From IMG/VR virus record IMGVR_UViG_2563366824_000007: a stretch of DNA of 43,405 nucleotides; one strand, given 5' to 3'. A program made the translations under genes and the position numbers. Under the pieces are notes generated by a model. It had not been told where the DNA came from, did not search any database, and saw only the letters and a program-made list of their open reading frames with translations. The DNA comes from a virus (taxonomy: Duplodnaviria > Heunggongvirae > Uroviricota > Caudoviricetes). Shown here piece after piece: positions 35,791-37,721 of this stretch (the first letter of the stretch is position 1; each line of letters opens with the position of its first letter).

Positions 35791-36129
35791 CTATTTCCCT
35801 GAATTTACGACGAAACTGTTCGAGCGGGCTGAAGCACTCATGCTCATAGCCTTCGCGGAGGTAGATAACTCGTTGTGTTTCCGGCTCCCAACGAATGACT
35901 CTGACGGGCACTCCGTAGTGATCTTTGAACCAGCGGTTAACTTGTCGCAAAGGACTGTCTCCTTCTGCCGGTTGAAATCACCCACAGCCCACTCAGCAAA
36001 GCTGTGGGTTACAATTTCCCTGTCACCTGGTACATTAACTGCATAGCAATACTCCACCTTCGCTTTTCCACCCGGTACAGGAAGCGCAATCAGTTGCGAG
36101 CGACGGTAGTGTGTTGTTAAACTGTTCAT
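35791..36129 (-). CDS. Hypothetical early protein
   Basis: 112-aa ORF whose ATG overlaps the upstream gene stop (ATGA), ending 10 nt before the O-like gene. Confidence 0.5.
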
Positions 36130-36734
36130 GCGTTAGTTTCTCCACAGTCACGACACGCCACGGCGCCCGGAGCTGCACACTCGCGGGCGTCATTACTTTC
36201 TGAAATGCAAAAGATTTTGTAGACCAGTGCTGCATGCTCCTGCAGCTTCGAAATTGAGAGATACAGCTCGTCGTTAATTGCTGTCTTCTCATGCGGTTCC
36301 ACCACACCGTCTTCGATTGCCGAACGAATCTGTCTGGAATAACTGCCAATCTGTTCAATGACTTCCAGCAGGCGCTGGTTAATATCCGCGTTGTCCACAT
36401 CCTCGACGTCAGGAAGAGACACAAAGACGCCATTTGCAGACTGCGCCACAGCGTCAGCAATGAAGTGAGTTCCACCAGCACGTTGCAAAATCATTGCCCA
36501 TCCCAGCGGGAAAATCTGATCGCCATCGGCACGAAGGCGGTTAAATAATGCGTTTTCTGTTACATCCAGCCAGTCAGCTGCTTCAGCGTAACCACCCGGC
36601 AACGCTGCGATAGTTTTTCTGACAGCTTTCACGTACCACTCAGGCTGTTTTTCTACTTTCCAGTGATGCTTACCCACGGTTAGCCTCATCGTTCTGTGGT
36701 TTCTGTTAATCGATTTATCCATTAGATTTTTCAT
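36126..36734 (-). CDS. Early regulatory-region protein at the cII/YdaT position (function uncertain)
   Basis: Track ORF 36126..36791 starts at GTG; in-frame ATGs at 36734 and 36722; no clear ribosome-binding site; follows the cro-like gene. Confidence 0.45.
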
Positions 36735-36915
36735 AAAGCTCAGGTTTAAATGGCAACCGTCCGCAAGTTCTATATGCAGCTTCTGCTGCACGTCCTTTTG
36801 GAATTAACTGGCCCGGACGGTTTCGCCACTGATAAACGGCTTCAGTTGTTATGCCGAAAAAAGCAGCAACTTTCTCAATACTGCCGAAGTAGCTTTCGAT
36901 ATCGTCAGTTGTCAT
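36715..36915 (-). CDS. Cro-like HTH regulator (YdaS/Cro family)
   Basis: 66 aa with HTH (VAAFFGITTEAVYQWRNR); GGAGGG ribosome-binding site; divergent from cI. Confidence 0.75.
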   Translation of the reverse strand: MTTDDIESYFGSIEKVAAFFGITTEAVYQWRNRPGQLIPKGRAAEAAYRTCGRLPFKPELYEKSNG

Positions 36916-36925
36916 ACGCCCTCCA

Positions 36926-36990
36926 AACTAAGTTTTATTAGATGCTAATTACAAATCTATCTTTGGTCAATAAAAACTAAGATTACTTAG
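36926..36990. promoter_or_regulatory. OR-like operator/promoter region between cro and cI
   Basis: Palindromes ATTAGatgCTAAT (36937..36949) and CTAAGattaCTTAG (36977..36990) plus an AACTAAG half-site; minus-strand TTGACC -17- TAGCAT promoter overlaps the first palindrome. Confidence 0.6.
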
Positions 36991-37012
36991 CAATTCAAGA
37001 AATGGTGCTCCT

Positions 37013-37639
37013 ATGGAAACGGTTGGTCAGCGTATAAAAGCTCTGAGAAGAGTTACCGGAACGTCCCAGAAAGAATTGGGTAAATTTTGTGGAGTAAGCG
37101 ACGTTGCTGTGGGGTACTGGGAGAAAGACATCAATACTCCTGGTGGGGAGGCACTTTCGAAATTAGCGAAGTTCTTCAATACGTCAATAGATTACATTCT
37201 TTATGGTGCTGAGTTTGAAGGCAAACTCGTCACAAACATGCGCAGAGTTCCTGTAATATCGTGGGTTCAGGCTGGGCAGTTTACTGAGTGCAGGGCAGCA
37301 GAAGTGTTTAGTGAAGTGGACAAGTGGGTAGATACATCATTAAAGATTGGTGATAACTCATTTGCATTAGAGGTTAAAGGTGACTCCATGACTAACCCTA
37401 ATGGCCTCCCAACAATACCAGAAGGCGCAACAGTGATTGTAGATCCAGATGCAGAACCTCGTCATGGAAAAATAGTCATCGCTCGACTTGATGGAACAAA
37501 CGAAGCTACAGTAAAAAAATTAGTCATCGATGGCCCTCAAAAGTTTTTAGTGCCATTAAATCCTCGGTATCCCAACATCCCTATCAATGGTAATTGCCTT
37601 ATCATTGGTGTAGTCAAAGGAGTTCAATACGAACTCTAA
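37013..37639 (+). CDS. CI-like repressor (HTH plus S24 LexA-type autopeptidase domain)
   Basis: 208 aa; N-terminal HTH (QKELGKFCGVSDVAVGYWE), C-terminal peptidase region with GDSM serine motif and a downstream Lys. Confidence 0.88.
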   Translation: METVGQRIKALRRVTGTSQKELGKFCGVSDVAVGYWEKDINTPGGEALSKLAKFFNTSIDYILYGAEFEGKLVTNMRRVPVISWVQAGQFTECRAAEVFSEVDKWVDTSLKIGDNSFALEVKGDSMTNPNGLPTIPEGATVIVDPDAEPRHGKIVIARLDGTNEATVKKLVIDGPQKFLVPLNPRYPNIPINGNCLIIGVVKGVQYEL

Positions 37640-37653
37640 GACCTCTCTTCTCT

Positions 37654-37721
37654 AACTAAGGCACCGAACTAAGAAAAGTTTGGTGTTTTCTCTTGCCATA
37701 ATAACTAAGTTAAGTTAGATT
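37654..37721 (+). promoter_or_regulatory. OL/PL-like operator-promoter downstream of cI
   Basis: Three further AACTAAG repeats (37654, 37667, 37703) and a rightward TTGCCA -17- TAGATT promoter (37693..37721) with half-sites in the spacer. Confidence 0.5.

Follow-up and report, generated by a model that had tools for sequence, protein, structure and literature searches.

A probable P22-type right operator built on CTAAG half-sites between the cro-like and cI genes of a temperate lambdoid phage

Results

Divergent cro-like and cI genes border a 97-bp gap

In the window, by which we mean the whole 43,405-nt stretch of phage DNA analyzed here, a minus-strand open reading frame (positions 36715–36915) and a plus-strand open reading frame (37013–37639) diverge from a gap of 97 bp (36916–37012), whose position and length, given before by a first-pass annotation, are confirmed by the sequence and the reading frames. 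The GC content of this intergenic DNA is 32%, compared to 50% for the whole window. The minus-strand frame encodes a cro-like protein of 66 residues, which matches the Pfam family P22_Cro (PF14549) with 42.8 bits against a cut-off of 30.2 bits, and which among PDB structures matches N15 Cro (2hin; E = 9e-5) and P22 Cro (1rzs; E = 0.02). The Shine–Dalgarno sequence GGAGGG, read earlier as the ribosome-binding site of cro, is found on the minus strand at 36924–36919, 3 nt ahead of the ATG. Orthologues with a near-identical recognition helix, I[TS][TSP]EA[VFI]YQW, occupy the same position in 16 of 22 related loci.

The plus-strand frame encodes the repressor CI, a protein of 208 residues with the Pfam domains HTH_3 and Peptidase_S24. 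The N-terminal domain resembles that of P22 c2 (E = 2e-10, 38% identity), and the C-terminal domain resembles that of lambda CI (E = 1e-27), with the serine of the GDSM motif and the lysine of the KK motif aligned. A cI-type gene (HTH plus S24) and a cro gene thus stand back to back on either side of the gap, as in the right operator region (OR) of P22-type phages, and the gene families together with the motifs between them show that the general reading of an OR-like divergent control region was right. The immunity region is shared at 95–99.8% identity with the phages vB_EcoM-689R6, vB_EcoS-569R4, mEp460 and Kati, and at 77% with LLS.

We note that the gene after cro (36129–36680, minus strand) belongs to the Phage_CP76 (CII) family of Pfam and is called YmfL in relatives. 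The list of open reading frames gives a 221-residue, GTG-start frame here (36126–36791, minus strand) that overlaps the 3′ end of cro, and the records of related phages give a form of 184 residues (552 nt), so that the true start of this cII-like gene is uncertain.

An 18-bp unit recurs in the immunity region

Three motifs were listed for the gap by the first-pass annotation, and all of them are present: the palindromes ATTAGatgCTAAT (36937–36949, referred to as palindrome 1) and CTAAGattaCTTAG (36977–36990), and the heptamer AACTAAG (36926–36932). The unit that we recognize among them is CTAAG-N4-CTTAG, a 5-4-5 arrangement of two arms around a four-base-pair spacer, which extends to an 18-mer with the half-site A-n-C-T-A-A-G and an A/T-rich center of 4 bp. 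With at most one mismatch, CTAAG-N4-CTTAG has three matches in the 43.4 kb (starting at 36928, 36977 and 37705), where 0.52 are expected, and all three lie inside the immunity region: CTAAGttttATTAG (36928–36941), the perfect site at 36977–36990, and CTAAGttaaGTTAG (37705–37718). Because CTAAGttttATTAG is one of these three 5-4-5 matches, the orphan AACTAAG and the left arm of palindrome 1 make up one site with the same geometry as the perfect site.

The comparison set comprises 21 loci from Escherichia, Enterobacter, Kosakonia, Kluyvera, Serratia, Rahnella, Yersinia, Rouxiella, Providencia and Proteus, in which CI is 63–100% identical and its recognition helix is near-invariant (CGVS[DG]V[AST]VGYWE); these loci share ancestry, and counts across them are non-independent trials. 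A weight matrix trained on the relatives alone, with the window and mEp460 left out, yields the half-site A-n-C-T-A-A-G, and ranks the sites named O1, OL1, O3 and OL2 below as numbers 1, 2, 3 and 4 among 43,388 window positions. Across the 21 loci, the center-to-center spacing of O1 and O3 is fixed at 49 bp, and the information content is 1.74 bits for the O1 half-sites and 1.89 bits for the O3 half-sites, against 0.63–0.68 bits for the flanks. Cytosine is found at position 3 of 73 of the 76 half-sites of relatives, and the centers of the sites are A/T-rich (TTTT, ATTA, TTAA and AAAA). The CTAAG-type repeats are, on sequence grounds, the best operator candidates of the cro–cI gap.

Three candidate sites, two of them at the predicted promoter PR

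The leftward promoter reading into cro, PR, is given by the promoter scan as TTGACC (−35; 36965–36970, minus strand), a 17-bp spacer and TAGCAT (−10; 36942–36947, minus strand), and its activity is predicted from sequence. Both hexamers are located where the first-pass annotation had placed a strong leftward promoter (−35 at 36970–36965 and −10 at 36947–36942), but only nine of 12 positions match the consensus, and the word strong was therefore overstated. At the position of the −10 element, relatives have TAATAT (10 loci), TAGTAT (three) or TATTAT (three), and TAnnAT holds in 20 of 21 loci; TTGACC is found in 15 of 21. Transcription of cro is predicted to start at ~36935.

Site O1, the 18-mer AACTAAGttttATTAGAT (36926–36943), has its core at 36928–36941, with one mismatch to CTAAG-N4-CTTAG. 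It adjoins the PR −10 element and covers the predicted PR start point, in a position equivalent to OR1 of P22, and at least four of the five arm pairs are retained in 20 of 21 loci. Site O3, the 18-mer AACTAAGattaCTTAGCA (36975–36992), has a core at 36977–36990 that is a perfect palindrome and an exact match; the five arm pairs are complete in 17 of 21 loci, with four of them retained in the remaining four, and its position is equivalent to OR3. Between them, in the PR spacer and extending to the −35 element, we place a weak site, O2 (36950–36967), with the core CAAATctatCTTTG at 36952–36965, its center 24 bp from that of O1 and 25 bp from that of O3, in a position equivalent to OR2. The core of O2 matches the consensus at seven of ten positions. 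By score alone O2 is at background level in the window (rank 35 of 43,388; 41 positions observed versus 44 expected at that score), and the support for it thus comes from position and comparison. In sum, the gap has the three-site array of a P22-type OR, in which partly symmetric sites sharing one half-site recur at ~23–25 bp; O1 and O3 are strong and O2 is weak.

The inventory of operators in the first-pass annotation was correct in taking the repeats as candidates, but it overlooked the weak O2 and left the operator and promoter set downstream of cI unlinked to them.

A promoter for maintenance of cI, PRM, is predicted on the plus strand. Its −10 element would be TAAGAT (36978–36983), which lies inside O3 and is the same hexamer in the same place as the annotated P22 PRM −10. 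The predicted −35 element, ATCTAT (36955–36960), matches the consensus poorly, and only its positional homology with the annotated P22 PRM −35 (5 bp into OR2) recommends it; we looked for a convincing PRM −35 element and found none. The position of PRM, with its very poor −35 element, is thus one that we infer by analogy with P22. The cI transcript is predicted to start near 36989–36990, which gives a predicted leader of ~24 nt with the Shine–Dalgarno sequence GGTG five nt before the ATG.

Six related loci, of the Serratia and Rouxiella type (L009, L012, L013, L015, L016 and L025), have no cro orthologue beside cI, and other genes abut their operators; they may be defective prophages or have a different layout of the early region. 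Five of the six retain a good O1 and a good O3, and L016 has one strong site. Because sites are kept in relatives that lack a cro orthologue, their conservation argues for CI more directly than for Cro. An additional CTAAG-type site lies ~116 bp upstream of cI in L013, L015 and L025.

The layout coincides with the annotated operator region of P22

The annotated P22 record, in the same orientation, has OR1 at 826–843, the PR −10 at 842–847, OR2 at 849–866, the PR −35 at 864–869, OR3 at 874–891, the PRM −10 TAAGAT at 877–882, the PRM transcript start at 888 and the ATG of c2 at 892. The start of O1 is separated from the start of the PR −10 by 16 bp in both the window and P22, and the start of O2 from that of the PR −35 by 15 bp in both; the distance from the first to the second site is 24 bp in the window and 23 bp in P22, and that from the second to the third is 25 bp in both. 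TAAGAT begins 3 bp into the third site in both, and in P22 the transcript starts 6 nt downstream of it. The offsets of sites and promoter hexamers agree with those of the annotated P22 OR within 1 bp.

Also common to both are the divergent repressor and cro genes, a Cro of the P22_Cro family, and 18-bp sites that consist of 7-bp half-sites around a 4-bp A/T-rich center, with the dyad axis between base pairs. The differences lie in the half-site (A-n-C-T-A-A-G in the window versus A-T-T-T-A-A-G in P22), in the recognition helix of the repressor (SDVAVGYW versus SNVAISQW), in the PR spacer (17 bp versus 16 bp) and in the leader of the repressor transcript (~24 nt predicted for cI, whereas the c2 ATG follows the transcript start by 4 nt). 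We consider it highly probable that the gap, which would govern the choice between lysis and lysogeny, is the OR of a temperate lambdoid phage of E. coli, of the mEp460/vB_EcoM-689R6 type and built on the P22 plan. The P22 immC region, with OR1–OR3, OL, the c2 repressor and Cro, was reportedly described by Poteete et al. in 1980, and structures for this system are 2R1J and 1RZS.

A second operator set lies on the far side of cI

As in a P22-type immunity region, a second set of operators with an early promoter is found on the far side of cI. The promoter scan gives a PL-like promoter, TTGCCA-17-TAGATT (37693–37721, plus strand), and in both the window and P22 the PL −35 element is followed by 4 nt and then by an 18-mer operator whose end forms the −10 element. 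This operator, OL1 (AACTAAGttaaGTTAGAT, 37703–37720), overlaps the PL −10 and has a core with one mismatch. OL1 is identical in the window, mEp460, LLS and 689R6, and a core with at most one mismatch is found there in most of the related genome loci.

Directly after the stop codon of cI, a hairpin followed by a U-run (37658–37689, plus strand; −15.1 kcal/mol, z = −3.64) is probably the cI terminator; it is retained in relatives with the compensatory change of ACCGAAC/GTTTGGT to ATCAAAC/GTTTGAT. The candidate site OL2, AACTAAGaaaaGTTTGGT (37667–37684), is inside this hairpin, 36 bp from OL1 (the corresponding OL1–OL2 distance in P22 being 35 bp). Its CTAAG half-site, which extends from the upper stem into the loop, is conserved in this position; the right half may be shaped by the terminator stem instead of by repressor binding. 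The half-site conserved in stem and loop, together with the presence of P22 OL2 at the same distance, makes a double role as operator and terminator possible.

A third OL site (37654–37671, AACTAAGgcacCGAACTA) was considered and rejected, as it scores −1.5 (rank 49) and its AACTAAG is lost in mEp460 and LLS. To the right of ~37790 the sequence differs among the window, 689R6, mEp460 and LLS, which points to a variable region behind PL.

Half-sites covary with the recognition helix of the repressor

The P22 repressor binds an 18-bp site, in which it contacts positions 2–7 and 12–17 and reads the central four base pairs indirectly, with A/T favored (PMC4267663). When the T at position 3 is replaced by C, the repressor binds at least 16-fold more weakly, at the non-specific level (PMC4267663). 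In the P22 numbering the window sites read A1 n2 C3 T4 A5 A6 G7, and every strong half-site of the window has C3, so that none matches the imm P22 operator ATTTAAG-N4-CTTAAAT; nor does the repressor have the imm P22 helix SNVAISQW, as its own helix is SDVAVGYW in an N-terminal domain 38% identical to that of c2. Since C3 abolishes specific binding of the P22 repressor, the window belongs to a separate immunity class, and the differences in specificity lead us to expect that P22 and the window phage are heteroimmune.

Three pairings of helix and half-site are found in the family, all of them, including those of more distant relatives, on the same three-site plan. The helix S[NH]VAISQW goes with TTAAG-N4-CTTAA in P22, Photorhabdus and Xenorhabdus, where the 14-mer cores begin at distances of 65, 41 and 16 bp ahead of the ATG of the repressor gene; SDVAVGYW goes with CTAAG-N4-CTTAG in the class of the window; and NRVTVTGW goes with GTAGG-N4-CCTAC in Morganella and Proteus. 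This covariation is the strongest evidence, albeit indirect, that CI reads the half-sites. In the four Morganella and Proteus loci (L030 and L032–L034), where CI is 41–44% identical and has the helix NRVTVTGW, GTAGG-N4-CCTAC or GTAAG-N4-CCTAC occupies the same position, which looks like a further specificity class of the family.

For Cro proteins, alanine at position H3 of the recognition helix is correlated with A at +5, and glutamine at H6 with G at +6 (PMC6649833). The Cro of the window has the helix TTEAVYQW, and these two correlations are consistent with the register ACTAAGAT. The link between H1 and base pair 2 in the Cro code fails here, as relatives with proline at H1 retain C at +2.

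Alternative readings of the gap

The first-pass annotation regarded ATTAGatgCTAAT (5-3-5) and CTAAGattaCTTAG (5-4-5) as two separate operators and AACTAAG as an additional lone half-site, and the parse has some appeal, as both palindromes are perfect in the window and palindrome 1 overlaps the PR −10 element, a sensible location for a repressor. It would, however, require two different dimer geometries, one with the dyad on a base pair and one with the dyad between base pairs. Palindrome 1 (36937–36949), moreover, is fully paired in one of 21 loci, the window itself, and has at most three pairs in 13 of them; the right arm, for which relatives have TTAAT, TTAAA or ATATA, is accounted for by the PR −10 element with its conserved TAnnAT. 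A single perfect 5-3-5 palindrome is expected in 97 bp of such composition with P ~0.14, and the whole window has 53. The alternative 5-4-5 pairing of AACTAAG with ATTAG is the one retained in 20 of 21 loci, and it matches the geometry of O3, OL1 and P22. Palindrome 1, being unconserved and composed of the right half of O1 together with part of the PR −10, is therefore rejected as an operator, and we regard the two-palindrome parse as very improbable; the AACTAAG half-site, present as described, is not isolated and pairs with the left arm of palindrome 1 to form O1. We give a negligible probability to the view that the CTAAG repeats arose by chance, in intergenic DNA that is AT-rich (32% versus 50% GC) and in which short palindromes are common, or that they bind another factor: matches of at least 18 bits to the weight matrix trained on relatives number three in the window where 0.013 are expected (2.5e-6 per position under local composition), the positions of the sites are constant across genera from Escherichia to Proteus, and within the family half-site and CI recognition helix covary.

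With the 5-4-5 unit taken as the operator, the number of sites and the place of the maintenance promoter can each be read differently. Only O1 and O3 might be real, with the O2 stretch conserved merely as PR spacer and −35 element, and this two-site reading gains from the score of O2, which at seven of ten core positions and rank 35 is expected ~44 times per window, and from the overlap of part of its conservation with GGTCAA, which is the PR −35. Nonetheless, of the 26 registers possible between the outer sites, the one offset by 24 bp from O1 is the best in 16 of 21 loci, a count that is supportive but short of decisive, as the relatives are non-independent and it overstates the case for O2. 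At the same position Rahnella has a good site, CTAATctttATTAG (eight of ten), and Yersinia a perfect left half; O2 is exactly at the place of P22 OR2, and a middle site with this spacing is clearly seen in the P22-like relatives from Photorhabdus and Xenorhabdus. We thus consider a two-site OR unlikely. The same architecture could also go with a maintenance promoter elsewhere, either with TAGCAA (36988–36993) as the −10 element at the right edge of O3, in the manner of lambda with O2 near −42, or with an upstream establishment promoter only. The hexamer after O3 is TAGnnT or TAGnnA in all relatives and resembles the −10 of lambda PRM and that of the window PL, TAGATT, and TAAGAT as −10 would put O2 over the −35 element, which is unusual for an activator. 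Yet the TAAGAT arrangement is exactly that of P22, where the annotated PRM transcript begins 6 nt beyond the hexamer; all 21 loci have TAAGAT unchanged, down to two spacer bases that are unconserved in the other operators of the class, which differ in the spacer; TAGCAA lacks the final T; and conservation is low downstream of O3 (0.63 bits), as expected of a leader. Such a displaced promoter seems to us distinctly improbable, and we retain TAAGAT inside O3 as the predicted PRM −10.

Discussion

Proposed operation of the switch

By analogy with P22 and lambda, dimers of CI would occupy O1 and the weak O2, probably in a cooperative manner, and would thereby block leftward transcription from PR, as the edge of the −10 element and the start point lie under O1, and the spacer, as far as the −35, under O2. 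Because O3 holds the predicted −10 element of PRM, TAAGAT, its occupation by excess CI or by Cro would shut off cI. Given the S24 self-cleavage domain of CI, a response of the switch to the SOS signal is expected; upon induction CI would cleave itself under RecA stimulation, and Cro, of the P22_Cro fold, would then bind the same sites. That CI and Cro share these sites, as proposed at first, is inferred from homology, and the assignment of proteins to sites, the cooperativity, and the position and activation of PRM are drawn from the P22 analogy. On the other side of cI, OL1 and OL2 would control the PL-like promoter just after the gene.

A more ambitious reading, which we offer as tentative and think doubtful, combines two features: a natural re-targeting of a P22-type repressor, in which Asp at H1, Gly at H5 and Tyr at H6 read the C:G pair at position 3 with the three-site scaffold otherwise unchanged, and an OL2 palindrome extended into the cI terminator hairpin, so that one sequence would serve both as DNA operator and as RNA terminator. 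If true, this overlap of operator and terminator could couple read-through of cI with the control of PL.

Relation to lambda, N15 and phage 21

The logic of the lambda OR is shared by the window, with PR and a predicted divergent PRM, three sites that CI and Cro would both use, a self-cleaving S24 CI and a second set of sites at PL. Lambda sites are 17 bp long, with the dyad on a base pair, and the lambda array is located ~17 bp further upstream relative to PR. The hallmarks of a lambda-type OR, an odd-length site and an alpha+beta Cro, were not found in the window, whose sites are even-length (5-4-5) and whose Cro is of the P22_Cro/N15 kind. A lambda-style placement of the sites relative to PR is likewise rejected, as the array takes the P22 position. 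The fold of lambda Cro is alpha+beta (PMC6649833), whereas the Cro of the window matches the all-helical N15/P22 type.

N15 Cro is the best structural match for the window Cro, with the helix TPGAVYQW compared to TTEAVYQW. N15 and the window also agree in having the dyad between base pairs, and in both the pairing of Ala at H3 with A at +5 and of Gln at H6 with G at +6 is respected. N15 differs in its 16-bp site with the half-site TTATAGCT, in its prophage repressor, CB, and in its genome type (a linear plasmid prophage). The structure for N15 Cro and its OR sites is 6ON0.

The likeness to phage 21 (imm21) concerns the repressor: records with imm21-type repressors, such as DE3 and mEp235, have an N-terminal domain 39% identical to that of the window CI, and phage 21 represents a different specificity class. 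Phage 21 operators have been described together with those of P22.

A separate immunity class and its distribution

The window thus represents a separate immunity class on the known P22 scaffold, and no new kind of switch. In our literature search we found no paper with these operator sequences (the Cro and site catalogue of Hall, Lefevre and Cordes, 2005, was outside the search), and for mEp460 we found only listings by prophage finders. The analysis accordingly defines operator sequence and layout for an immunity type without experimental study in the searchable literature, and it offers a natural specificity variant for work on how repressors and Cro proteins of the P22 family read DNA.

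Of 5,426 complete E. coli genomes, 531 (~10%) carry the immunity region, and CI at 83–92% identity has been recorded in Citrobacter, Salmonella, Enterobacter, Klebsiella, Raoultella, Kluyvera and Leclercia. As the type also occurs in prophages of Citrobacter, Salmonella, Enterobacter, Klebsiella, Serratia, Yersinia and Proteus, knowledge of its operator class and distribution makes homo- and hetero-immunity among these prophages predictable. One further record, the 369-bp low-coverage contig JBLKRX010000118.1 from an assembly under the name Fredinandcohnia humi (a relative of Bacillus), codes for residues 28–150 of the window's cI with 98% identity and is most likely contamination by enterobacterial DNA.
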